A stretch of 64,000 nt of DNA, taken from contig OY970320.1 of NCBI GenBank assembly GCA_963716745.1, positions 1,152,001 through 1,216,000 on the forward strand, written 5' to 3'. The position numbers were made by a program, and so were the translations under genes. This DNA is from an uncultured Gemmatimonadaceae bacterium. Its GTDB lineage: Bacteria > Gemmatimonadota > Gemmatimonadetes > Gemmatimonadales > Gemmatimonadaceae. Positions 11,432 to 37,281 of this stretch are shown here, one piece after another; the stretch's first letter is position 1; the number at the start of each line of letters is the position of its first letter. The notes under the pieces are model-generated. The model worked only from the letters and a program-made list of their open reading frames with translations. It was not told where the DNA came from and made no database searches.

Positions 11432-12591
11432 ATGCCCACCTCTGAATCCCGACCCGGCCTCTCGACGCTCGCCTTGCACGGCGCGCGCGAGTCGCGCGAC
11501 GCCGACACGCCGATCGTCTCGCCGCTCTATCAGTCGGTCAACTTCATCCAGGAAGTCGGCACCGGCGACGGGCTGCGCTATCCGCGCTACGGCAACAATC
11601 CGACGGCCGAACTCGTGCAGCGCCGCCTCGCGCTGCTCGAAGGCGCGGAGGCCGGCCTCGTACTCGGCAGCGGCCAGGGCGCCACCGCGTGCGCGCTGCT
11701 CGCCCTGCTCCGCCCCGGCGATCACCTGCTGGCGAGCAAGTGGATCTACGGCGGCACGCACAAGCTGCTCACGCGCGAGTTCGAGGCGATGGGCATCAGC
11801 GTCACACTCGTCGATCCGCTCGAGTCGCGCGGCTGGCGCAAGAAGCTCCGCAAGCACACGCGCGCGGTGTTCGTCGAGACGCCGGTGAACCCGAGCTGCC
11901 GCGTGCTCGACCTGCGGCCGATCAGCTACCTCACGCAGGAGACTGGCCTCACGCTCGTCGTGGACTCCACCTTCGCGTCGCCGATCAACATCCGTCCGCT
12001 CGAGCACGGCGCCGACGTCGTCATCCACTCGGCCACGAAGTATCTCAACGGCCATCACGACATCCTCGGCGGCGCGGTGATGGGCACCAGCGACTACATT
12101 GAGGAAGTGCGGCAGAAGATGATCCTCTGGGGCCAGGCGCCCGACCCGTTCGCGTGCTGGCTGCTCGAGCGCGGACTCAAGACGCTCGAGGTGCGCGTGC
12201 AGCGGCAGAACGAGAACGCGATGAAGGTCGCGCAGTGGTGCGCCGGCCAGAAGGCGTTCACGGCGGTGCATTACCCCGGGCTCGAATCGCATCCCGATCA
12301 TGCGATCGCGCGCGAGCAGATGCGATGGCTTCGGCGGCATGCTCGCCGTGGAAGTGAAAGGCGGCGGGGCGGCGGCGGAGCACATTCCTGCGCCGCCTGC
12401 AGATCTTCGCGCACGCGACGAGCCTGGGCGGCGTGGACTCGCTCGTGTGCGAGCCGCGCTTCACGTCGCACGCGCACATGACGCCCGCCGAGCGCGCGGC
12501 CATCGGCATCCCCGACGGCTTCGTGCGCATCTCCGTGGGCATCGAGAACGCCGCCGATCTCATCGCCGATCTCAAGCAGGCGATCCGCTGA
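11432..12591 (+). CDS. PLP-dependent Cys/Met metabolism enzyme (cystathionine gamma-synthase/lyase family), frameshifts near 12325 and 12385
   Basis: YPRYGNNPT, ETPVNP, VDSTFASP, HSATKYLNGHHD, SLGGVDSL, RISVGIE. Confidence 0.9.
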
Positions 12592-13294
12592 TGATCCGCT
12601 TCACGCGCGTCACGAAGGAGTATCCGCGCACCGGCGTCGCGCTCAACGACGTCACCTTCCGCGTGAACAAGGGCGAGTTCGCGTTCCTCACCGGGCCGAG
12701 CGGCGCCGGGAAGTCCACGATCCTGCGGCTCATCCTCATGGAGGAGCATCCCACCTCGGGCGAAGTGCGCGTGAGCGGCACCGCGGCGAGCGAGATCCGC
12801 CAGCGCGACGTGCCGCTGCTCCGCCGCAAGCTCGGCGTGGTGTTCCAGGATTTCCGGCTGCTCGAGGACCGCACCGCCGAAGAGAACGTCGCCTTCGCGC
12901 TCGAGGTCACGGGTGCCTCGCGCGACGGGCTCGCCGCGCGCGTGAGCCGCCTGCTCACGCAGGTGGGGCTCGCGAGCAAGGGCACGAGCTATCCGCAAGC
13001 GAACTCTCCGGCGGCGAACAGCAGCGCGTCGCGATCGCGCGCGCGCTCGTGCACGATCCGATGCTGCTCATCGCCGACGAGCCCACCGGCAACCTGGACG
13101 AGCGCGCGACGCGCGGCGTCTTCCAATTGCTGCGCGACATCAACGCGGCCGGCACGGCGATCATCATGGCCACGCACAATCTCGACCTCGTGCGCCGCTC
13201 GAACTACCGCGTGATCGAACTGAATCGCGGACAGCTCGTGTACGATTCGGCGGCGCAGCCCGTGCCCGCGGCACCGATGGACGGAGACGCCTAA
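12591..13294 (+). CDS. ftsE: Cell division ATP-binding protein FtsE, frameshift near 12995
   Basis: GPSGAGKST, GVVFQDFRLL, LSGGEQQRVAIARA, ADEPTGNLD; followed by ftsX. Confidence 0.92.
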
Positions 13295-14144
13295 TGCGCC
13301 TCACGCTCCGCGAAGTCGCGCTCGGTCTCCGGCGCTCGCCGCTGCTCAGCACCCTGAGCATCGTCACGATCGCGTTCAGCATGTTCGCCGTGGGGCTGTT
13401 CGGCCTCGTGGCGCTCAACGTGAGCCGCGCGCTGCGCGGCCTCGAAGAGCATGTCGAGATCCGCGCCTTCATCGCCGAGGGCACCTCGCTCGAGGCGATC
13501 ACCACCGCGCTCGGCGACCTCAATGCGTTCCCCGAAGTGCAGCACGTGGAATACGTGACGCCCGAGATGGCGCTCGCCCGCGCGCGGAAGGAGCTCAGCG
13601 AGTTCAGCGACGTGTTCGACGCGAATGTGCTGCCGGGCTCGCTCGACATCCGCCTCAAGGAAGGCTATCGCGATCCCACCAACGTGGCCGCCGTCGCGTC
13701 GCGCGTGCTCAACTATCCGTTCGTGGATGACGTGCGCTACGGCGAGGAATGGGTGAAGAAGCTCTATCGACATCCGCCGCCTCGCCGTGGCGGCGGGCAT
13801 CGTGCTCGGGCATCGCCTTCGCCGCCGTGGCCGTGATCATCATCGGCACCACGATCCGCATGGCCGTGCTGGCGCGCGCGCGCGAGATCTCGATCATGCG
13901 CCTCGTGGGCGCGACGAACGGTTTCGTGCGGCGCCCATTCCTCATCGACGGCTTCCTGAAGGGCGTCGCCGGCGGCGCGCTCGCGCTCGTGCTCACCTGG
14001 GCCGCGAGCCAGCTCATCAGCGACCGGTTCATCACGACCGTATTCTTCGACCGCGACATCGCGCTGCTCGGCATCCTTGGCGGAGGACTCATCGGCCTGC
14101 TCGGCAGCGCCATGTCCGTCGGGCGCCACCTGCGCGACGTGTGA
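13294..14144 (+). CDS. ftsX: Cell division permease FtsX, frameshift near 13770
   Basis: IGTTIRMAVLARAREISIMRLVGATNGFVRRPFL. Confidence 0.9.
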
Positions 14145-15346
14145 GCGCGAGACACGCACTTGCCGCGGCGCTCGCGGCGCTCGCGCTCCTCGCGGGCGCG
14201 CCGCGCGCAATGGCGCAGCAGCCCACCCTGCAGCAGGCGGAGCAGCGGCTGCGCGATGAGCGCGCCCGCCTCGACCAGCTGCGCAACGAGCGCCAGGAAC
14301 TCGAGCGCCGCCGCACGGCGCTCCAGGGCACCGTGCACGATCTCTCGGAAGAGCTCGAGAACGTGAACCGGCAGGTGGAGATGACCGCGCGCGTCGTGCA
14401 GACGCTCGACAGCCAGCTCGCGGCCATCAACGCCGATGTCACCGTCACCACCGCCGACCTCGTGCGCGCGCAGGACGAGCTCGAGGTGAAGAAGGTGGTG
14501 CTCCAGCACCGGCTCGTGGACATCTACAAGCGCGGCGGACTCTACTCGAGCGAAGTGTTGCTGAGCGCGAACAGCTTCGCGGACCTCGTGGCGCGCTACA
14601 AGTATCTGCATCTCGCGGCGCTGCGCGACCAGGCGCTCGTGAAGCGCGTGGACGACCTGCGCAAGCAGATCGACCACCAGCGCGAGAACCTCGTGCACTT
14701 CCAGGACGAGATCGAGATCAATCTCGCCGAGAAGGGCGAAGAGGAGCGCCGCCTGCGCAGCCTGCAGGAGGAGCAGGCGAACAGCCTCGCCAGTGCGAAG
14801 CAGAAGACGCGCGAGACCGAGAAGCGACTCGCGTCGCTCTCCGAGGATGAGCAGAAGCTCACCGACATGATCGGTACGCTCGAGACCGCGCGGGCGAAGG
14901 CCGAGCGCGACTCGCGCGCGCCGAAGGCGGCGCCGACGCTCAAGAAGGGCGGCACCGGTACATTCGATTGGCCGGTGAAGGGGAATCTGCTCTACAGCTT
15001 CGGACGCGTCGTGAATCCCAACAACACCACGGTGCGATGGAACGGCATCGGCATCGCGGCGCCGGAAGGCACCGAGGTGCGCGCGGTCGCATCGGGCAAG
15101 GTGGTCGTCGCCGAAGCGCTCAGTACGTACGGCCTCACGGTGATCGTGCAGCACGCCGGCGGCGATTACTCCGTGTACGGTTCGCTCAGCCGCCTGAACG
15201 TGAAGAAGGGCGACATCGTGAATCGCGCACAGGTGATCGGCTACGCAGGCGTTTCGGATCCCGAACTCCCCGCGCATCTGCACTTCGAGTTGCGCCCCGC
15301 GGGGCACGCGGTGGATCCGCTGGATTACCTCAAGCCGCTCCCGTGA
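14141..15346 (+). CDS. Murein hydrolase activator EnvC-like (coiled coil + M23)
   Basis: Signal peptide, long coiled coil, WPVKG, WNGIGIAAPEG, LHFELR; follows ftsEX. Confidence 0.88.
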   Translation: MSARHALAAALAALALLAGAPRAMAQQPTLQQAEQRLRDERARLDQLRNERQELERRRTALQGTVHDLSEELENVNRQVEMTARVVQTLDSQLAAINADVTVTTADLVRAQDELEVKKVVLQHRLVDIYKRGGLYSSEVLLSANSFADLVARYKYLHLAALRDQALVKRVDDLRKQIDHQRENLVHFQDEIEINLAEKGEEERRLRSLQEEQANSLASAKQKTRETEKRLASLSEDEQKLTDMIGTLETARAKAERDSRAPKAAPTLKKGGTGTFDWPVKGNLLYSFGRVVNPNNTTVRWNGIGIAAPEGTEVRAVASGKVVVAEALSTYGLTVIVQHAGGDYSVYGSLSRLNVKKGDIVNRAQVIGYAGVSDPELPAHLHFELRPAGHAVDPLDYLKPLP

Positions 15347-16226
15347 GCGAAGCGCCGCTCGGCGCGCATTGCAGCACCGCGGGCGGCGGCACGACCACCG
15401 CGCCGCCCCGCGCCAAACTCATCAAGGCCACCGCGCTGCAGCTGTTCACGAAGGCCGCGAGTCGCTGGCAGGAGCGCGAGTGCGACGCCGCCGAGATCAC
15501 GGAGTTCAAAGCGCAGCTCGCGCTCACCGATGTGCGCGTCACCATGGCGCACGATTCGTATCTCATCAATCTCGCGAGCCCCGACAAGACGCTTCGGCGC
15601 CGAGCACCGAGAGCTTCGTTGCGGAATTGCGGCGGTGCGAACAACTCGGCCTCACCTATCTCGTGAGTCACCCGGGCAATTTCATGGACGATCGCGCGAG
15701 CGGGCTCGCGCGCAACGCCGACGCGATCGCGGAGGCGCTCGAACGCGCGCCGGGCCGCACGGTGCTCTGCCTGGAGACGACCGCCGGCAGCGGCACCGCG
15801 CTCGGCGCCACCTTCGAGGAGCTGGCCGCGATCATCGCGCGGCTCCCCAAGGCTCAGCAGAAACGCGTTGGTGTGTGCGTCGACAGCTGTCACGTCTACT
15901 CGGCGGGCTACGATCTCGTGAAGGATTACGACGGCGTGTGGGCGCGCTTCGACGACGTGCTCGGACTTTCGCGCCTGCGCACCATGCACCTGAACGACTC
16001 CAAGACCCCGTTCGCCAGCCGCCGCGACCGTCACGAGCTGATCGGCGAGGGGTCGCTGGGGAAGAGGCCATTCCAACGGATCATGACTGATCCGCGTTTA
16101 GCGGGTGTCGCGAAGGTGATCGAGACGCCGAAGGGCGATGATCACGCGAAAGCCGACGGGAAGATGCTGAGGAGGCTTCGGGGGTATGCGCGCGGGCGCA
16201 GCTTCGAGTCGGTAGAGCAGACCTAG
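15343..16226 (+). CDS. nfo: Endonuclease IV, frameshift near 15600
   Basis: LGAHCSTAGG, HDSYLINLAS, HPG, LETTAGSG, DSCH, HLNDSK, DRHELIGEG, IETP. Confidence 0.93.
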
Positions 16227-16302
16227 ACGCTAGACCTAGACGTTAGACTACTCCCGCAGCCGCAGTTTTATGCTAACGTCTAGGTCTAGCGTCTAGGTCT
16301 GC
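16217..16302. repeat. CTAGAC-type palindrome (perfect 30-bp arms)
   Basis: gcagacctagacgctagacctagacgttag 16217-16246 / reverse complement 16273-16302. Confidence 0.95.
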
Positions 16303-16306
16303 AGTT

Positions 16307-16334
16307 TTGACACGGGCTCTCCCAGCGCTACCTT
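16307..16334 (+). promoter_or_regulatory. Sigma70-type promoter, probably leaderless start
   Basis: TTGACA (16307-16312), 16 nt, TACCTT (16329-16334), 6 nt, ATG at 16341. Confidence 0.65.
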
Positions 16335-16340
16335 GAAAAC

Positions 16341-16694
16341 ATGCCTCGCGTGAGACCCCGACGCCTAAGAGTACTCTCAGCCGTACTGATCGCCGCGACC
16401 CAGTTCGCGGTCGTCGGGTTCGGGCCGCTCGTCGATGGCATCCAGGGTGCGAGTGCGCCGGCGCACGTCGAAGAGTTCGGCATCCATCTCCACTATTCGC
16501 ACGATCCCGACAATTGCGCCGCGTGTGCCGCGTCGCACATGGTCGGCGACTCGCCCCGCGTGCCGACGCCCGCGCTCCTGCTGGCGCCGCAGCGCGATGG
16601 GATCGCGATCGCGCTCGTCGTTCCCGCCGTACATCGCGCCGGCACTCCCAAGTCTCCGCGCGCGCCTCCCCGCTCCGCCGCCGCCGCTCGCTGA
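16341..16694 (+). CDS. DUF2946/CruR-like leader protein 1 (CxxC + RAPP)
   Basis: Basic then hydrophobic N-terminus, HVEEFGIHLHYSHDPDNCAAC, SPRAPP near C-term; directly upstream of a TonB-dependent receptor. Confidence 0.8.
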   Translation: MPRVRPRRLRVLSAVLIAATQFAVVGFGPLVDGIQGASAPAHVEEFGIHLHYSHDPDNCAACAASHMVGDSPRVPTPALLLAPQRDGIAIALVVPAVHRAGTPKSPRAPPRSAAAAR

Positions 16695-16839
16695 ATCCAG
16701 CTGAGCGCCACTGACAATTGATCGCGCGCTCGCTGTGGCCCTTTTGGGGCTCCGCTCGGCGCATCCCAATCTCGGTCTTTCGGCGGAGCCGCATTCGCGT
16801 GCGCCTCCGGGGGACTCGCACATATGCCCGGAGCGATCC

Positions 16840-19202
16840 ATGTCCAGCAGAACACTCGAACGCGTCCGTCAGCTCGCCGGCCTCGCCGCGTGCCTGGCGT
16901 TCGCACTCTTCGTCCCCTCGACCGCGCATGCCGCCGTCGATCCCGATAACTCCGATGTGAGCGGCACCGTCACCGATTCCGCCACCGGCCAATCGCTGCA
17001 AGGCGCGCAGATCAGCATCCTCGACGGCCAGCAGCAGGTCGTGTCCCGCGTGCTCGCCGACGCATTCGGACGGTTCGTGATCCACAACGTGAAGCCCGGG
17101 CAGTATCTCCGTCCTGGTGCGCTTGATCGGCTTTCGCCCGGAGGACCGCCCGATCGAGTTGAAGGACGGAAGGAACGTCTCGCTCTCGTTTAAGCTGGCC
17201 GCAGTCGCCGTCACGTTGCAGTCGATCTCCGTGGCGACTGCCGTGCCGATCACCATCGACACGCGCAGCGGCGTGCAGGTCTTCCAGCAGGATGAGTACC
17301 ACGGCTCGCCCACGAACACGACGTCGCAGATCCTGCAGCAAGCGATCACCGGCGCGGCACGCGCGCCCACGGGAGAGGTGCATATCCGCGGGCAACACGC
17401 GGAATACACCTACTACCTCGACGGCATTCCCGTGTACCCCGGGATCTCCGGCAGCCTCAATGAACTGTTCGATCCGTCCATCGTCGATCGCATCTCGTTC
17501 ATCACCGGCGGCTGGGACGCAGAATACGGCAATCGCAACACCGCGATCGTGAACGTCGCCACGCGCGTTCCTGTCGGCGCATTCCACATGGGCGCGTCCG
17601 CCTATGGCGGGATCGTACAACAGCAATGGTCAGACGTTCGACCTGAGCAGCAGCAATGGCACATGGGGATTCTTCGGCGCCGCGACGCGGCAGGTCACGG
17701 ACATGCGGCAGTATCCCGTGGCGTTCGACACGAGCCAGCTTCAAACCATTCAACTACAGCAATCACGGCGAAGATCTCTTCGGCTTCGGCAAGATCGAAT
17801 ACTCGCCCGGCGACGCGGGATCAGCTGTACCTCGAGGGGAACGCGTCCACCACCACCTTTCAGATCCCGTTCGACTCATCCACCGGCATCATCGACGACC
17901 ATCAGAACGACAAGAACAGTTTCCTGAACTTCGGGTGGCACCACCTCACCGGCTCGCCGCAAGCGGGACCGGATCGAACCCGGCGGCGAAATGTTCACCG
18001 GACTCTTCTACCGGAAGGGGTCGCTCCTCTACACACCGGGCGAGAACGACGATCCTTCATTCATGTTCTTCCCCGATACGACGCCGTACAACCTTCACGA
18101 GGATCGCAATTTCCAGAGCTACGGCCTCACGGCGAGCTATGCCTGGCGCACCGGTCACATGTTCTCGTTCAAGGTCGGTGCGCTCGTCTCGCAGACGACC
18201 GGCCACGAATCGTTCACCTCGGTGGATTCTCTCGGGAACGCCGGGCCGGCGTCGAATGCCGATCTCAACGGCAGCGATGTGGATGGCTACGCGCAGACGG
18301 TGATCGCGCCGTCGGAGTGGCTCGATTTTCACCTCGGCGTTGCGATACGACAACCACGCGGCGCCATTCGCCGGCCACCAATCCCAGTGGAGCCCGCGCG
18401 TGCGCGTCAATTTCTATCCCAGCGCGGGCAGCACGATCTATCTCTACTACGGCCGGCTCTTCATGCCGACCAACGTGGAGGACCTGCGAACCATCACGAG
18501 CGTCGCCGACTCGGGCGTCGTCACCGCGCCAACGCTGCCCGAGCGCAATGATTTCTACGAGATCGGCTACGTGCAACGCGTCGCGATTCGGCGTGCTCAA
18601 GTTCTCCGGCTACCACAAGCAGAGCACTCCCGGGATCGACGACCAGACCGTGCCCGGCTCCGCGATCGTCACATCGGTGAATCTCGCGTCGGTGCACATC
18701 ACGGGCCTCGAAGCTACGTTCGAGGTCCGGCCCGCCGGACCGTGGTCAGGGCTACGTGAACTTCTCGATCAATCATGCATACGGTCGCGGCCCGATCACC
18801 GGGGGCTTCTTCCCGGTGGACTCCACCGGCGTGCCGGGCAACTGGTTCGATCTCGACCACGACCAGCGGATCTCGTCCGTAGCTTCGGTCGTGTATTCGG
18901 GAAAGCGCTGGTTCGCCAGCGCATCGGGAACGTACGGCACCGGGCTCACGAACGGCGCCGAGATCACGCAGCCGATCGGCACCGGGTTCTTCGATTTCAA
19001 CCGCGACATCCACGTCGCGCCGAACTTCATCACGACGCTGAGCGCCGGTTATACCTGGCTCTTCGGCAAGACCGTACTGCGCCCGGTGCTCTACATCGAC
19101 AACGTCTTCAACTCGCAATATCTCCTCAAGGGGCAATTCTTCAGCGGCGCTTCGGCAGGACGGCCGCGCACCGTGCAACTGCAGGTGTCGGTGAATCTGT
19201 AA
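16840..19202 (+). CDS. TonB-dependent receptor with N-terminal carboxypeptidase-regulatory-like domain, multiple frameshifts
   Basis: Signal peptide, VSGTVTDSATG, plug HIRGQHAEYTYYLDG..ITGGWDAEYG, SPRVRV, DHDQR, DNVFN, GRPRTVQLQVSVNL. Confidence 0.88.
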
Positions 19203-19228
19203 CGAACGGGCCGGCTGGCGCGTTTTAC

Positions 19229-19311
19229 CTACAGACTGAGACGTTAGACTTAGACGTTAGAAGGCTACGACTCCCGCATTCTAAGTCTCAGTCTAAAGTC
19301 TCAGTCTGTAG
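19229..19311. repeat. Variant TAGAC/GAGAC palindrome
   Basis: ctacagactgagacgttagacttagacgttagaa ... ttctaagtctcagtctaaagtctcagtctgtag. Confidence 0.85.
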
Positions 19312-19315
19312 TGTT

Positions 19316-19344
19316 TTGCCAACCCGGAACCAGCCAGGTAGCTT
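19316..19344 (+). promoter_or_regulatory. Sigma70-type promoter, probably leaderless start
   Basis: TTGCCA (19316-19321), 17 nt, TAGCTT (19339-19344), 6 nt, ATG at 19351. Confidence 0.65.
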
Positions 19345-19350
19345 GATAGT

Positions 19351-19720
19351 ATGAAGCCCATGAATCCGCCGCCGCCGATCCCGACTCCGCGTCCTCGCCG
19401 CCGCCCTCGTGGCGGCGTCGCAGTTCGCGGTGTCGGCGTTCGCGCCGATGGCGGATTCCGGGGCCGGCAACAGCGCGCCGTCGCACGTCGAGGCGTTCGG
19501 CGTGAGCCTGCATTTCGCGCACAATCCCGACGATTGCGCGGCGTGCCTGGCGCAGTCGATCATCGGCATCACGTCGCACGGGTCGGCGACGATCGTCGCC
19601 CAGGACGCCGCGACATCCGAGTTCGACGCGGCCGCGCCTGCGGCCGCCACGCGCATCGCCTGGAGTCCCGGCGCTCCGCGCGCACCTCCCGCCCCGCTCC
19701 GCGCGCGCCTCAGCAGCTGA
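19351..19720 (+). CDS. DUF2946/CruR-like leader protein 2 (CxxC + RAPP), probable 1-nt insertion near 19363
   Basis: RRRRSRLRVLAAALVAASQFAV..APSHVEAFGVSLHFAHNPDDCAAC..APRAPP; paralog of 16341..16694. Confidence 0.78.
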
Positions 19721-19824
19721 TCTGAGCGCGCCCGCCGGCCATCGTGCCGGCGCCAAGCCGACCGCACGCCGCACCGCCGCCGCGATAGTCGCGGCCGCAC
19801 GGCGCGCGCCGACATCACGGAGAC

Positions 19825-21244
19825 ATGCGCATTCCATCGATCACTCGCCGCGGCTTGGGGCCTCATCGCCCTTCCGCTCGCGGCTCAGCAGTCCGACTCC
19901 ATCGCCCGCGCCTTGCACGTCGCGGACTCGATCGCGCGTTGGCGCGCCGATTCCGCGAACGTCGCCAAGGAGCGTCAGCGCATCATGCACGAGCCGCGCG
20001 CGCACCCGCCGGCTCCGCTGCCGCCACCGCCGATCCGCCTCACGAAACAGCAGGCGATCGACAGCGCGCTCGCGCACAATCCCACGATCGTGATCGCGCG
20101 CGAACAGGTCGCGCAGGCGAACGCGCGCGTCACGCAGGCCACCGCCTTCCCCGACCCCACGCTCGGCTTCACGGTGCAAGGCGTCGGGCGCGCGATCAAT
20201 CCGCACCCCGCATTCGAGACCGACATCATCGCCGGCTTCACGATCCCCTTCCCGCAGAAGTTCTGGCTCCACGGGCAGGCGGCCGACGGTGACGTCGGGA
20301 ATCTCGAGGCGGCCTACCGCACGCAGCGCGCAGGTGATCGCCACGGAAACGGCGCAGGCCTACGACTCGCTGCTCGTCTCGCTGAAGCACCGCGACGATC
20401 TGCTGCTCGCGCGCGCACTCTCGCAGGATTTCCTCAAGAAGACGCAGGCCCGCTTCAACGCGGGCACCACCGCGCGACTCGACGTCGTGAAGGCGCAGGT
20501 CGGCGTCGCGCAGAGTGGAGAACGATCTCATCGCGAACGAGCGCGGCGTCGCGCAACGCGCGCGCCGCGCTCAACCGGCTGCATCGGCCGCATCCTCGGC
20601 GCGGGCATCGACGCGGTGGACACGCTCGCGATCGTGCCCGTTCCCGAGGACTACGACCGGCTCCAGCAGGTCGCGATGGAGCATCGCCCCGAGCTCGCCG
20701 GCATCGAGCGCCAGATCGCGGCGGCGCACTCCGCCGAGAAGCTCGCGCAGCAGTACTACTTTCCCGACCTCAACGTGAGCTTCCAGCACAACGATCCGTA
20801 CGGCGTGCCCGGGCCTGCCCGTCATGAGTTGGACCAGCGGCGTCGGCATCAGCGTCCCGCTGCTCTTCTGGCAGCACCAGAACGGCGAGGTCGCCGAGGC
20901 GAAGCATCTCGAGCTCGAGCTCGCCGCCACGCAGCGCGACGTGTTCGCGCAGGTGGAGCAGGACCTCCGCAACGCGTACTCCACCGCCACCACGAGCTAC
21001 CGGCAGGCGGTGTTCATTCGCGATGAGCTGCTGCCGTCCGCGCAGGAGCAATACGACATCGCATTCAAGACGTACAGTCTGGGCGGCGCGAGCTGCGCTC
21101 GAAGTGATCGACTCGCAGAACGCCTTGCTCGACGCGAAGAACCAGTTCGCTACCGCGCTCGGCGCGCTGAATGATGCCGTCGCCGACCTGCAGCGCGCCG
21201 TCGGTGCGCCGCTCGACACCATGCCTTCGGACACCCGCCAATGA
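19825..21244 (+). CDS. TolC/CzcC-family outer membrane efflux protein, multiple frameshifts
   Basis: QAIDSALAHNP, RFNAGTTARLDVVKAQV, EHRPEL, GISVPLLFWQHQNGEV, LEVIDSQ. Confidence 0.85.
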
Positions 21245-22414
21245 GTGATCACATCATGCGGCACGCCGCGCGCGTCATCCTCCTCGCGGCCATCGCCGGC
21301 GCGGCCGCCTGCTCGGCGAAGAACGAGCGCGGCGAACGGCGCCGGCCGACAGCAGCCGCGCCGGACGCAGCGCGCCGCTGACGCTCTCGCCCGACCAGCG
21401 CGAGCACCTGACGCATGGTCCCCGTGACCATGGAGAGCTATCGTCCCACGATCGCAGACCACGGGCACCGTGGCATTCGACGGCGAACATCTCCACGCAG
21501 GTGCTCGCGCCGATCTCCGGACCGGTGCTGCGGCTGCTCGTGGAGGTCGGCGCGTCAGGTGAACCGCGGCGATCCGCTCGCGCTGCTCTCGTCGCCCGAC
21601 TTCGCCGCGGCGGTGTCCGCGTACCGCAAGGCGCAGGCGGCGGCGCTGCAGACGAAGCGCGTCGCCGATCTCAACGCCGAGCTCTTCAAGGCCGATGGGA
21701 TCGCGAAGCGCGACCTCGAGCAGAGTCGAGGAGGACGCCGAAGCCGCCGCAGTCGGACCGCGACGCCGCGCTCCAGCAGCTGCGCGCGCTCGGCGTGGAC
21801 TCGGTCACGATCGCCGCGCTGCAGGATCCGAAGAAGAGCGTGCCGGTACAGGCGTACATTCGCGCGCCGATCGCCGGCACCGTGGTGGAGAAGCTGATCA
21901 CGCCGGGCCAACTGCTGCAGGCGGGCACGACGCCGTGCTTCACCGTGGCCGATCTGTCGCGCATGTGGGTGCTCGCGAACGTATTCGAGTCGGACCTCGC
22001 GTTCGTCTCGCCGGGGGACAAGGCGCAGATCACCGGCGCGGCGCTGCCGCATCCGCTCACGGGCGTCGCGATCTACGTCGCGGCGCTGGTGGATCCCTCG
22101 ACGCGCGCCACCAGCGTGCGCATCGAGGTGCCCAACACGGGGCGCGTGCTGCGGAAGGACATGTACGTCGAAGCGGCGATCCAGTCGTCGCGCACGATCA
22201 AGGGGATGCTCATTCCCGTCTCGGCGGTGCTGCGCGATGACAACAACCTGCCCTTCGTGTTCGTGGAGAGCGACCGAAGGGCACGTTCTCCCGCCGCGTG
22301 GTCACGCTGGGCAACAGGCTCGGCGACCGCTACGAGGTGAAAGACGGCCTCAAGGAAGGCGAACAGGTGACGGCGGAGGGCGGGCTCTTCCTCGAGTTCG
22401 CGCAGGGCCAGTGA
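21241..22414 (+). CDS. RND efflux periplasmic adaptor (CzcB/CusB-like), multiple frameshifts
   Basis: Lipoprotein-like GAAAC, APISG, RAPIAGTVVE, VADLSRMWVLANVFESDL, VDPSTR, IPVSAV. Confidence 0.87.
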
Positions 22415-25400
22415 GCCGGCCGGAAGTACCGAAGGATCGCGCCGCTCACACGGCGAGCTTCGTCAACTACCTCGTGGCGGCGGCGGTCGACCAATGGCCG
22501 ATCGTCGCCTTCCTCGCGCTGCTGTTCGTCGGCGTCGGCATCTGGTCGTTCCTGCGCCTGCCGGTGGACGCGTATCCCGACCTGTCGCCGCCGATGGTCG
22601 AGATCATGACGCAATGGCCGGGCCACGCCGCCGAGGAAGTCGAGCAGCTCATCACCGCGCCCATCGAACTCTCGATGAACGGCGTCCCGAATCTCAAGGT
22701 GATGCGCTCGATCTCGCTCTACGGCCTCTCCGATGTGACGCTCACCTTCCGCGACAACACCGACGATTACTTCGCGCGGCAGCGCGTGTTCGAGCGGCTG
22801 CCCGACGTCGCAGCTGCCAGAGGGGATCACGCCGAGTGTGTCGCCGCTCTTCTCGCCGTCGGGGCTCGTGTACCGCTACGTGATCGAGAGCAAGGACCGG
22901 AGCGCGATGGAGCTCAAGAACATCCAGGACTGGGTGCTCGAGCGCCAATACCGCTCCGTGCCCGGCGTGGCCGACATGAGCTCGCTCGGCGGCGAGACGA
23001 TGCAGTACCAGGTCGTGATCGATCCGGTGCGGCTCGCCGGCCGCGGACTCACGGTGCCCGCCGTCGCCGCCGCGCTCTCCGCGAACAACAGCAATGCGGG
23101 CGGCGGGTTCTACTCCGAAGGCGGCCAGTTCTACTACGTGCGCGGGCTCGGCCGCATGGCGACCACCGAGGACATCGGGCGCACCGTGGTGGCCGTGAGC
23201 AACGGCACGCCCGTGCTCGTGAGAGACATCGGCGAGGTGGTGATCGGCGCGGCGCCGCGACTCGGGACAGTTCGGCTTCGACAGCGTGAACGACGCCGTC
23301 GAGGGCGTGATCCTCATGACGCGCGGCGAGCAGGCACAGGTCGTGCTGAAGAAGGTGCAGGCCAAGACGACCGAGTTGAACGACTCGCTCTTGCCGAAGG
23401 ACGTGCACATTCGCCCCTACTACGACCGCAGCGAACTGATCGCACTCACCACACGCACGGTGGAAGACAACTTGCTGCGCGGCATCATCTTCGTGCTCGT
23501 CGTACTGATGTTCTTCCTGTACGACGTGCGGTCGGGGCTGATCGTGGCCACGACGATCCCGCTCTCGCTGCTCTTCGCCTTCATCTGCCTCGATCTGCGG
23601 CACGTGCCGGCCAATCTCCTCTCCATCGGCGCGATCGACTTCGGCATCATCGTCGACGGGGCCGTCGTCATGGTGGAGAACATATTCCGCCAGCTTTCCG
23701 CACGGCGTGAGGAAAAAGACGTGAGCGTGCGTGAAGTCATCATCGCCGCCGCCGCGGAGGTGGACCGGCCCGATCCTGTATGCGGTGGCGGTGATCATCG
23801 CGGGATTCCTGCCCATCTACGTGCTCGCGGGCCCGTCGGGCACGCTGTTCCGCCCGATGGCCGATACGACGATCTTCGCGTTGATCGGCTCGCTCCTCCT
23901 CACGCTCACGCTGCTGCCCGTGCTCTGCTTCTTCGTGCTCGGCGGCCATGCGCGCGAGCGGCACAATCCGGGCTTCGAGTGGATCAAGCGGCACTACACG
24001 CGCGGCCTCGACTGGTCGATGCGAGTACCCATGGCGCGTGATCGGCGGTTCTACGCTGCTGCTCGGCGTCGCGCTGGCGCTCATCCCGTTCATCGGCGCG
24101 GAGTTCATGCCCAAGCTCGACGAGGGCGCACTCTGGGTGCGTTCCACGATGCCGTACACGATCTCCTTCGAGGAATCGTCGCGCATCGTGCCGCAGATCC
24201 GCGCGGTGCTGCGCTCGTTCCCGATGGTCACCGTCGTGGCGGATGAGCACGGCCGTCCCGACGACGGCACCGACGCCACCGGTTTCTTCAATGCCGAGTT
24301 CTACGTTGGGCTCAAGCCCTACAACGAATGGACGGGACCGATCCGCACGAAGGCGCAGCTCATCGACAGCGTGGACAAGCGCCTCGCCTCGTTCACCGGC
24401 ATCACGTTCAACTATACGCAGCCCGCCGAGGATGCGGTGAACGAGGCCGAGACCGGTCTGAAGAGTTCGCTCGACGTGAAGGTGTTCGGCACCGATCTGG
24501 AGCTGCTCGAGAAGAAGGGGAACGAGATCAAGAAGGTGATCGAGGCGGTGCCGGGGATCACGCACGTGACCGTGGTGGAGGAACTGGGCCAGCCGAGTCT
24601 CACGATCAGCATCGATCGCGCGAAGACGTCGCGGTACGGCATCAACGTGGACGACGTGAACGGACTCGTGGAAGCGGCGGTGGGCGGCAGCGCGGCCACG
24701 ACCATCGTGCAGGGCGAACGGCGGTTCGATCTCGTGGTGCGTCTCAAGCCCGAGTCGCGCCGCACGCCGGAGGAGATCGGGCACATCCTGGTCGCGGCGC
24801 CCGGCGGACAGCAGATCCCGCTGCGCGAACTGGCCGACGTGCGCGTGAACAACGGTGCGTCGTTCATCTACCGTCAGGACAATTCGCGTTTCATCGGCAT
24901 CCAGTACTCGGTGGAGGGCCGCGATCTCGCGAGCGCCGTGCAGGAAGCGCAGAAGGCCGTGGCCGCGAAAGTGCGCGTGCCGCCCGGCTATCGCGTGCGC
25001 TGGGGCGGCGAGTACGAGGATTACACCGCGTCGCGCGACCAGCTGCAGTTCGTGCTGCCGGTCACGATCGTGCTCATCTTCCTCATCCTCTTCTCTCTGT
25101 ACAACAATTTCAAATTCCCCTGGATCACCGTGGTCGGCGTGGTGCTCTCGGGGCCGATCGGCGGGATCTTCACGCTCTGGCTCACCGGCACGCCGTTCTC
25201 GGCGAGTTCGGGTATCGGATTCCTCGCGTTGTTCGGCGTGTCCGTGCAGACGGCCGTCGTGTACATCTCCTATGTGAACGAGTTGCGGCGCGATGGCATG
25301 GACATCGTGCGCGCCACGCATGAGGCTGCGCTGCTGCGGCTGCGGCCGATCATGATGACGGCGCTCGTCGCCGCACTCGGCCTGCTGCCCGCCGCACTCT

Positions 25401-25543
25401 CCACCGGCGTCGGGAGCGATTCGCAGCGGCCCTTCGCGCTCGTGATCGTGGGCGGATTGTTCTCACGGCTCCTGATCAGTGTGTTCCTCATGCCGTCGCT
25501 CTATGTGGTGGTCGCGAAGGAGGGCGACCGCCTCGAGGTCTGA
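22411..25543 (+). CDS. CusA/CzcA-family heavy-metal RND transporter, several frameshifts
   Basis: LPVDAYPDLS, AEEVEQLIT, RSISLYGLS, GAIDFGIIVDGAVVMVEN, EFMPKLDEG, RLRPIMMTALVAALG. Confidence 0.92.
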
Positions 25544-37203: not shown

Positions 37204-37281
37204 CAGACCTAGACGTTAGACCTAGACGCTAGAATGCGTCCGTAGCTGTCTTCTAGCGTCTAGGTCTAGCGTCTAGGTCTG
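37204..37281. repeat. CTAGAC-type palindrome
   Basis: 31-bp arms 37204-37234 / 37251-37281, one mismatch. Confidence 0.93.

Follow-up and report, generated by a model that had tools for sequence, protein, structure and literature searches.

A putative DUF2946-type arrest leader ahead of a ZneA/CzcA-like exporter operon in an uncultured Gemmatimonadaceae bacterium

Metal-responsive arrest leaders and the leader at 19351-19720

Two leaders that control metal-related genes through ribosome stalling have been studied, CutF and CruR. In both paradigms a stalled ribosome means that the downstream gene is on, and the two differ in the action of the metal, which lengthens the stall in CutF and relieves it in CruR (PMC9973294, PMC9426467). 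Ozturk et al. 2023 describe copper as stalling CutF and turning a downstream detoxification gene on; in their account the genes most often found beside those for CutF-like proteins are OEP, ACR_tran and HlyD_D23, followed by TonB-like genes, the CutF-like proteins are not all copper-specific, and CutF and CruR are not isofunctional (PMC9973294). RAPP is described as a portable arrest core, and CruR as stalling with two proline codons in the P and A sites (PMC12992588). The criteria given by Roy et al. 2022 are a CXXC motif, a RAPP motif and a distance of 45 +/- 1-2 residues between them (PMC9426467). Small genes are also reported ahead of operons for resistance-nodulation-division (RND) pumps, with CzcI preceding czcCBA (PMC9973294) and Caulobacter CC2720 (DUF2946) lying directly before czrCBA (PMC4176598). 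Here, a putative leader of this kind is described at positions 19351-19720 of a 64,000-nucleotide (nt) stretch of DNA from an uncultured Gemmatimonadaceae bacterium (contig OY970320.1), the whole of which is referred to as the window. The genome (labelled G000) is a 3.29-Mb single contig with 67% G+C and an estimated completeness of 89.8%.

The reading favoured here, which we regard as fairly probable, is that 19351-19720 is a DUF2946-type arrest leader heading its own unit for a three-part RND exporter of the ZneA/CzcA kind, that metal turns this unit on, and that the frameshifts seen in it are assembly errors. Each of two leader copies in the window opens a metal-transport gene set on the same (plus) strand, copy 1 a gene for a TonB-dependent receptor and copy 2 the genes for an outer-membrane efflux protein (OEP), an adaptor and an RND pump. 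A sequence-only reading of the window had placed an arrest-type leader ahead of a CzcCBA/CusCBA-like RND operon, which is borne out by the motifs, the 44-residue spacer and the OEP, adaptor and RND domain matches; its proposal that a common leader type stands before both the receptor and the RND operon likewise holds for copies 1 and 2.

The body of leader copy 2, read in frame 2 of 19364-19720 up to the stop at 19720, starts with IRRRRSRLRVLAAALVAASQFAVSAFAP and runs to HVEAFGVSLHFAHNPDDCAAC; the segment ...SLHFAHNPDDCAAC is followed by 44 amino acids (aa) and then by RAPPAPLRARLSS. The protein is of a 122-aa type with a signal-peptide-like N-terminus, the motif H-x-E-x2-G-x3-H-x2-H-x4-CAAC, exactly 44 residues and RAPP. 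Its metal segment reads SLHFAH..CAAC, the RAPP codons occupy 19679-19690, and a 9-residue tail follows them. Leader copy 1 (16341-16694, plus strand, 117 aa) is intact and carries HLHYSH, H42-x-E44, G47, H51, H54, C59AAC62, a 44-residue spacer, R107APP and a 7-residue tail. The leader N-terminus has a basic N-region and a hydrophobic stretch, RLRVLAAALVAASQFAVSAFAP, with near-invariant Q21 and P29, and reads as signal-peptide-like. The two copies are the only non-chance ORFs (open reading frames) of leader type in their own genome, the rest being chance GC-rich frames. The candidate ligands H42, E44, H51, H54, C59 and C62 are identical in both copies, and the differences between them, H49/S, Y52/F and S53/A, fall at non-conserved columns, which lends little support to the earlier suggestion that the His-rich segment (HLHYSH versus SLHFAH) tunes metal selectivity.

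In an alignment of 19 relatives, taken from a protein database as well as from the genus and the family, E44, G47, H54, C59, C62 and R107-A-P-P110 are invariant, and Q21, P29, H42, H51 and A64 are nearly so. When a profile of the leader family was searched against 1.84 billion representative sequences, 451 proteins were returned at E<=1e-3, nearly all of them of 100-125 aa, and the motif statistics given here refer to the top 150 of these 451 cluster representatives. CxxC together with R[AGS]PP is found in 138 of the 150, and H-x-E-x2-G-x3-H-x2-H in 118; C59 and C62 are invariant in this set as in the 19-sequence set, and both window copies read CAAC. Among the 138 motif-bearing proteins the form RAPP is used in 135. 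The proline motif stands 44 residues from CxxC in 113 of the 138, while 12 have 43 and 11 have 45 (range 43-47); the tail after RAPP is of 3 residues in 74, and the motif lies 1-9 residues from the C-terminus in 135. In this family the spacer keeps its length while its sequence is unconserved. Of 301 genomes sampled from the phylum, 45 match the leader profile, among them 36 of the 69 that belong to the same family, and most have a single match; an unpublished genome (G012, locus L051) is counted in the 45 and was left out of scans and alignments.

At E<=0.01, PF11162 (DUF2946) is matched by 44 of the 150 representatives and DUF6153 by 14. Among 71 scanned genomes of the same taxonomic family, an ORF that matches the leader profile at E 1e-25 (G266:C56:33378-33671) scores 24.1 bits against the PF11162 cut-off of 23.7. 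This gathering score (23.7 bits) is not reached by the window copies, and a PF11162 scan of their own genome gave three weak unrelated places, none at the leaders. Because relatives match PF11162, and because the window leaders show the CXXC, the RAPP and the spacing of the CruR/CutF family (44 residues in both copies), they are, judging from sequence, divergent members of the DUF2946 (CruR/CutF) family that fall below the Pfam score themselves.

These data also bear on the possibility that the small ORF does not act in cis as an arrest leader but yields a mature metal-binding protein of the periplasm, either a CzcI/CusF-like chaperone or a regulator in trans. A signal-peptide-like N-terminus and six conserved potential ligands would be expected of such a protein, and the CzcI-type proteins upstream of czcCBA, which are described as having no proline motif, are thought to be regulators (PMC9973294). 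However, RAPP is present in 135 of 138 representatives and keeps close to the C-terminus in the same proportion, and its distance from CxxC is fixed at 44 while the intervening residues are unconserved, which points to a ruler and not to a fold. The complementarity between stall site and ribosome-binding site in relatives, with compensatory changes (see below), also speaks against a purely mature function, and we consider this account improbable.

Behind leader 2, and after a GC-rich spacer of 104 nt (19721-19824), lie three genes on the plus strand: an OEP/TolC-like outer-membrane efflux protein (19825-21244; PF02321), a periplasmic adaptor (21241-22414; HlyD_D23, IhpB-like) and an RND pump of the heavy-metal efflux (HME) type (22414-25543; ACR_tran). 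The adaptor matches the CzcB/NccB (TIGR00999) and IhpB models. TIGR00914 is the best NCBIfam match of two pump fragments (E 1.7e-124 and 1.2e-42), which as fragments score below the full-length cut-off, and the best solved chain for the C-terminal 531 aa of the pump is ZneA (4k0e; 327.5 bits, E 1.3e-96), with CusA at 233-235 bits. Transmembrane segment 4 (TM4) of the pump reads DFGIIVDGAVVMVEN (DFG..DGA..VEN), a motif that reportedly marks HME pumps for divalent cations (HME1/2; Nies 2003). Judged by bit scores, the pump is closer to ZneA/CzcA (Zn/Co/Cd) than to the Cu/Ag pump CusA. Copper is therefore not the obvious ligand of the leader, and a divalent cation, perhaps zinc, would be the better guess.

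The gene set of copy 1 precedes this unit. A structured spacer of 146 nt (16695-16840, plus strand) separates leader 1 from the gene for the TonB-dependent receptor (16841-19202, plus strand), with GGAG 6 nt before the ATG at 16841; the domains of the receptor, read from the intact orthologue in the sister genome G003, are CarboxypepD_reg, Plug and barrel. RpiB and then malic enzyme are encoded 3' of the RND pump.

Broken reading frames and the start of translation

Uninterrupted reading frames, which would be expected of functional exporter genes, are not found for the pump, the OEP and the adaptor in this assembly. Relative to intact orthologues, the receptor requires 6 successive frame changes, the RND pump 4 (all before 24030, the stretch 23948-25543 being without a frame break), the OEP gene 3 (a minimum) and the adaptor 2-3, and all of these are +1. 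Leader 2 is broken as well, its ATG at 19351 standing in frame 1 and its body from 19364 in frame 2; its only ATG codons, at 19351 and 19360, are both in frame 1, which opens MKPMNPPPP. The sequence-only reading had asked about a 1-nt insertion near 19363, and comparison with the sister genome G004 places one extra G at 19368, in the context ATGAATCC[G]CCGCC. Leader 2 of G004 is a single frame reading MKPMNPRRRSRLRVL, and the window leader minus the extra G reads MKPMNPRRRSRL, matching G004. This is one of about 45 single-base insertions in the window between 17.1 and 22.8 kb.

Were the frameshifts real, the receptor-leader-RND block of this strain would be a group of pseudogenes in decay, with a dead leader among them. 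A codon-usage Viterbi frame plot gives 22 same-strand frame switches in 17.0-25.5 kb, where the genome median is 5 per 8.5 kb, which places this region in the top 0.6% of 8.5-kb windows; the completeness of the genome is just 89.8%, and 19368 itself has no short-read contig coverage. One short-read contig (X1) starts aligning at 19370 after 9 unaligned letters, which is a hint only. On the other side, every change is a +1 single-base insertion, with no deletions or larger indels, and unrelated genes at 12-16 kb are hit too, while 24-64 kb is clean; comparable clusters of frame switches occur elsewhere in the genome. The alignment of the window with G004 has 91.8% identity over 12.4 kb and 106 gaps, nearly all of 1 nt, the bases extra in the window clustering at 17107-22819 and those extra in G004 at 22.5-25.5 kb. 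The assemblies of G002 and G004, which resemble long-read assemblies, are broken at other places and in different genes (amino-acid identity 90-96%); an unbroken receptor gene is found in G003, G004 and G005, and G005 also has an unbroken pump gene, whose product shares 94-96% amino-acid identity. Soil-metagenome short-read contigs lack at least nine of the window's extra bases, at 20332, 20517, 20815, 20817, 20822, 20825, 22268, 22274 and 22811.

Since the insertions are of 1 nt and in one direction, lie in reciprocal patches and occur regardless of gene function, the many frameshifts, that of leader 2 included, are most likely errors of single-base insertion in a long-read assembly and not gene decay. 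A dead leader, which had been named beforehand as the outcome that would undo the proposal, is accordingly unlikely, as neither G004 nor the short-read contigs carry the extra bases, and we give real decay of the whole block a small chance. The insertion at 19368 has been located by comparison with G004, and no short-read contig bridges it. Patches of this kind mean that apparent pseudogenes in this assembly need confirmation at the level of reads. The insertion patch (12000-24000) also touches an AP-endonuclease-like gene near 15600-15940 and an M23 peptidase region.

Both leaders follow promoter-like elements at close range. TTGACA-N16-TACCTT (16307-16334, plus strand) ends 6 nt before the ATG at 16341, and TTGCCA-N17-TAGCTT (19316-19344, plus strand) ends 6 nt before the ATG at 19351, in each case with no Shine-Dalgarno (SD) sequence; a sigma-70 consensus scan of 16100-19950 called no promoter, these sites being below its thresholds. 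Most relatives (L024-L057) have a TAnnnT hexamer that stops 6-9 nt short of the leader ATG, and only one of the relatives shows an SD-like sequence. Because a promoter-like element stands 6 nt before the ATG and no SD is present, both leaders are probably translated from leaderless mRNAs, they would head separate transcription units, and the ATG at 19351 would be the true start of leader 2.

A perfect hairpin resembling repetitive extragenic palindromic (REP) elements, with 30-nt arms built of 13-mers (AGACCTAGACGNT), lies at 16217-16302 directly upstream of the promoter-like site of leader 1, and a second REP-like hairpin with 27-nt arms (19229-19311) separates the stop codon of the receptor from the promoter-like site of leader 2. 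Hairpins of the tandem 13-mer are also found at ~37205-37271 and ~58259 and in dozens of intergenic places genome-wide. As candidate operators specific to the leaders, the 13-mer hairpins were rejected on account of this dispersal.

Direction of the switch and the cargo behind the leader

In the mechanism proposed, leader 2 would be translated, probably from its leaderless mRNA, and its N-terminus would engage the Sec pathway. With the ribosome at R-A-P-P, the His/Glu/Cys site would lie 45-65 residues back, just beyond the exit tunnel, and metal bound there (probably Zn or another divalent cation) would lengthen the stall. The stalled ribosome would hold the structured spacer open or shield it from termination, and the OEP, adaptor and RND genes would then be expressed, metal acting as the ON signal as it does with CutF. 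The upstream paralogue, leader 1, would control the TonB receptor with the same hardware. For copy 2, such a CutF-like polarity, in which metal prolongs the stall and the exporter is on, seems to us somewhat better than an even chance, an estimate that leans on published precedent and on what the cargo is more than on RNA folds. The earlier suggestion of an opposite polarity, with metal switching the RND operon on, is therefore plausible through the CutF precedent, and as an idea it is already in print.

Folding predictions are most favourable in relatives. In minimum free energy folds, the SD/AUG of the next gene is paired with the 24-nt footprint of a RAPP-stalled ribosome in 15 of 24 loci, for example with 13/13 of the paired bases in L032, 14/14 in L033 and 11/11 in L034. 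The helix between stall site and SD shows compensatory changes (CAGAGAA/UUCUCUG versus AAGAAGU/ACUUCUU), and native stall-site/SD duplexes have a mean of -14.2 kcal/mol, against -11.95 +/- 0.5 kcal/mol for cross-genus permutations, 0 of 5000 of which were as low. When the footprint is masked, SD accessibility goes up by more than 0.1 in 12 of 27 loci; it goes down in a single locus, window copy 2. For short-spacer relatives these predictions support a switch in which the stall would turn expression on by exposing the ribosome-binding site of the next gene. Five sequences of the genus, three of them nearly identical, keep a helix between the RAPP codons and the SD (GGAG..AUG of OEP) together with three spacer hairpins, with three compensatory pairs. 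For the window itself the RAPP-codon/SD helix, seen in minimum-energy and consensus folds, was discarded, having failed both the own-ORF control and the footprint-masking test.

Several points count against the favoured reading. Because the loci come from related genomes and are not independent of one another, the permutation result makes the support look stronger than it is. In copy 2, masking of the footprint lowers the predicted SD accessibility from 0.58 to 0.29, 9 of 21 other sequence windows of the same ORF form a duplex at least as strong as that between stall site and SD (-13.9), and the spacer fold has a z of -1.29. The fold of copy 1 shows no pairing between footprint and SD; the spacer after leader 1 has paired one-base indels at 16730/16736 relative to both G004 and a short-read contig, so the sequence used for its folds may be slightly wrong. 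After RAPP come tails of 7 (copy 1) and 9 (copy 2) residues, where 3 is usual, and scans of both window leaders against Pfam and NCBIfam gave no match (0 at E<=0.1 in Pfam). To these are added the short-read gap over 19368 and, in sister species, near-identical leader modules ahead of an importer formed by a porin and ZnuABC, which are ill-suited to a single rule that metal means ON.

As a separate observation, a GC-rich hairpin spans the leader stop codon in both copies (19701-19735 and 16684-16706), and its 5' arm corresponds to the codons of the long post-RAPP tail of this genus (7 and 9 residues; 3 in most relatives).

In both copies the end of the leader ORF is spanned by a stretch rich in C and poor in G (C/G about 2), and the spacers are long (146 and 104 nt), features that would also suit a Rho-dependent mechanism. 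They bear on the view that both copies have CruR-type polarity, with a default stall that metal relieves so that expression is turned off, and with the RND pump co-induced with the receptor under starvation in a non-detoxification role, the second branch of the sequence-only reading. The ORF ends and spacers would suit Rho loading, the CruR spacer being of 162 nt (PMC9426467); moreover, the two copies share the same conserved ligand set and the 44-residue ruler, porin-ZnuABC importers are headed by the same module in 6 of 6 such loci examined, and importer or exporter may stand behind the module in species of one genus. Nevertheless, the pump bears hallmarks of a metal-cation exporter, being ZneA-like with DFG..DGA..VEN in TM4. 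The conserved N-terminal hydrophobic segment, with near-invariant Q21 and P29, fits the export-dependent CutF better than CruR, whose signal peptide is dispensable. OEP/RND genes are also the commonest neighbours described for CutF-like proteins, and the sole studied case of a leader with a detoxification gene, CutF-CutO, is one in which metal turns expression on (PMC9973294). CruR-type polarity in both copies appears the less likely reading, but it is a serious rival and more probable than gene decay or a mature periplasmic protein.

What follows the leader varies among relatives. A downstream gene was defined in 23 of the 29 loci returned (that of G000 itself not counted), those left out being L030, L042, L052 and L053, in which the leader regular expression was unmatched, L036, at a contig end, and L051. 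The next gene encodes OEP in 15 of the 23 (E<=1e-36) and a Pfam-less protein of ~450 aa in 6; the 2 remaining picks (L029, L049) are dubious, belong to no family, look like wrong frames and are counted as unassigned. Complete OEP-adaptor-RND sets stand behind the leader in G016 and G017. A second weak DUF2946 match (20.7 bits) was noted in G016 (G016:C16:115749-116027, minus strand), ~10 kb from its leader-RND operon.

The Pfam-less protein, which ends in ..HKPHPF or ..HAAHKF, also follows leader 2 in G003 (L023:6535-7893). Its model has an N-terminal helix and a barrel of ~16 strands like the general porins OmpT, OprP and OprO, at modest confidence (predicted local distance difference test score, pLDDT, 64.8), and it may be a dedicated metal-uptake porin. 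In all six porin loci examined, ZnuA comes next and then an ABC-3 permease, and an ATPase is also present in three. The ZnuA-like protein encoded in G003 has its closest counterparts among zinc-type binding proteins, and manganese-type ones follow at a short distance; its metal specificity is ambiguous. In G003 L023 and in L058-L062 the porin-like protein has an N-terminal helix of ARADS repeats and a His-rich C-terminus ending in Phe, and it always stands between the leader and ZnuA-ZnuB(-ZnuC).

Two pairs of genomes indicate how the cargo may change. G016 (exporter cargo, L063) and G076 (porin-ZnuABC cargo, L058) belong to one genus, and their DNA is 73% identical across promoter, leader, spacer and the opening ~58 nt of the cargo gene, where the homology ends. 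Synteny between the window and G003 takes in the AP-endonuclease-like gene, receptor, leader 2, RpiB and malic enzyme, and the cargo alone differs. The part of the window set against the G003 locus (L023) is 19395-19561. The G003 porin matches G000, G004 and G005 only over its first 80-150 residues, at the start of the OEP gene; correspondingly, the first 70-150 residues of the window OEP resemble the N-terminus of the porin that occupies this position in G003. With the G003 porin as query, no match was found in G016 or G017.

From these comparisons it is suggested, tentatively and as something short of an even chance, that one portable cassette, consisting of a leaderless promoter, a metal-sensing RAPP arrest leader, a spacer and the signal peptide of the first cargo gene, fronts opposite cargoes, either a ZneA-type efflux pump or a porin with a ZnuABC-type importer, and that these are swapped within genera and in the same chromosomal slot, with the joint ~58 nt into the cargo. 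Near-identical leaders before opposite cargoes would imply that features beyond the conserved core decide which way the switch works, or that one cargo is induced counter-intuitively. If this holds, a few residues or bases would set the sense of the switch, or import, for example of Mn or Zn, would occur under an excess of a competing metal, and the opposite-cargo pair would be a natural system for finding what sets CruR-versus-CutF polarity. A full-text literature search found no paper on such leaders ahead of porin-ZnuABC operons or on cargo exchange, and the supplements of two mBio papers may list such contexts.

Comparison with described leaders and exporters

A DUF2946-type leader ahead of a Cus/Czc-type RND operon is the commonest published context, and metal as the ON signal is the published behaviour of CutF. 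What is new here is narrower, namely the zinc-type pump, the leaderless-looking mRNAs, the pairing of stall site and SD in short-spacer relatives and the porin-ZnuABC cargo in sister species. The value of the locus lies in its being a clean, divergent case from beyond the Proteobacteria, whose cargo is probably of the divalent-cation (Zn) type. A lineage in which one leader module stands before a receptor, an exporter or a porin-ABC importer could be used to ask what makes metal prolong or relieve a RAPP stall, and lineage-specific cargo exchange is the part worth following.

The exporter itself is like those of ZneCAB and CzcCBA in that the best match to ZneA, TIGR00914, a CzcB/NccB adaptor and OEP are all present in the window; it differs in that its reading frames are broken in the assembly, and a divalent cation is its predicted substrate. 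In having a small DUF2946-like gene directly upstream of a Zn/Co/Cd-type RND operon, the window resembles CzcI-czcCBA of Cupriavidus metallidurans and CC2720-czrCBA of Caulobacter crescentus (PMC9973294; PMC4176598). CzcI, as it is described in the former source, is without the C-terminal proline motif, and the likeness to CzcI and CC2720 is drawn by description.

Like the window leaders, CutF of Rhodobacter capsulatus (cutFOG) is a small exported protein whose Cys motif stands ~45 residues ahead of a proline arrest motif at the C-terminus. CutF is likewise first in a metal-detoxification operon, and its stalling is described as exposing the next ribosome-binding site (PMC9973294; 10.1101/2025.02.05.636593). 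CutF has CxxxC, a short spacer and a multicopper oxidase as cargo, whereas the window has H-x-E..H..H..CxxC with RAPP, spacers of 104/146 nt, a ZneA-like pump and no Pfam match.

CruR (Bp2923) of Bordetella pertussis shares with the window leaders CXXC and RAPP ~45 residues apart, and it precedes a TonB-dependent transporter across a 162-nt spacer, the spacer of window copy 1 being of 146 nt (PMC9426467). RAPP-dependent arrest by CruR is reported from in vitro work (PMC12992588). RAPP lies 3 residues from the C-terminus in CruR and 7 and 9 residues from it in the window leaders. Copper relieves the stall in CruR and Rho terminates transcription, and the CruR signal peptide is dispensable, whereas the N-terminal segment is conserved in the window family and copy 2 heads an exporter.

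SecM-secA and MifM-type switches resemble the window leaders in that an exported leader carries an R-A-(G/P)-P arrest motif close to its C-terminus, and in the descriptions available the stalled ribosome melts a helix that hides the next ribosome-binding site (PMC9973294, PMC12992588). SecM and MifM sense translocation load and not metal, and a helix of this type is supported here only in the short-spacer relatives of the window leaders.

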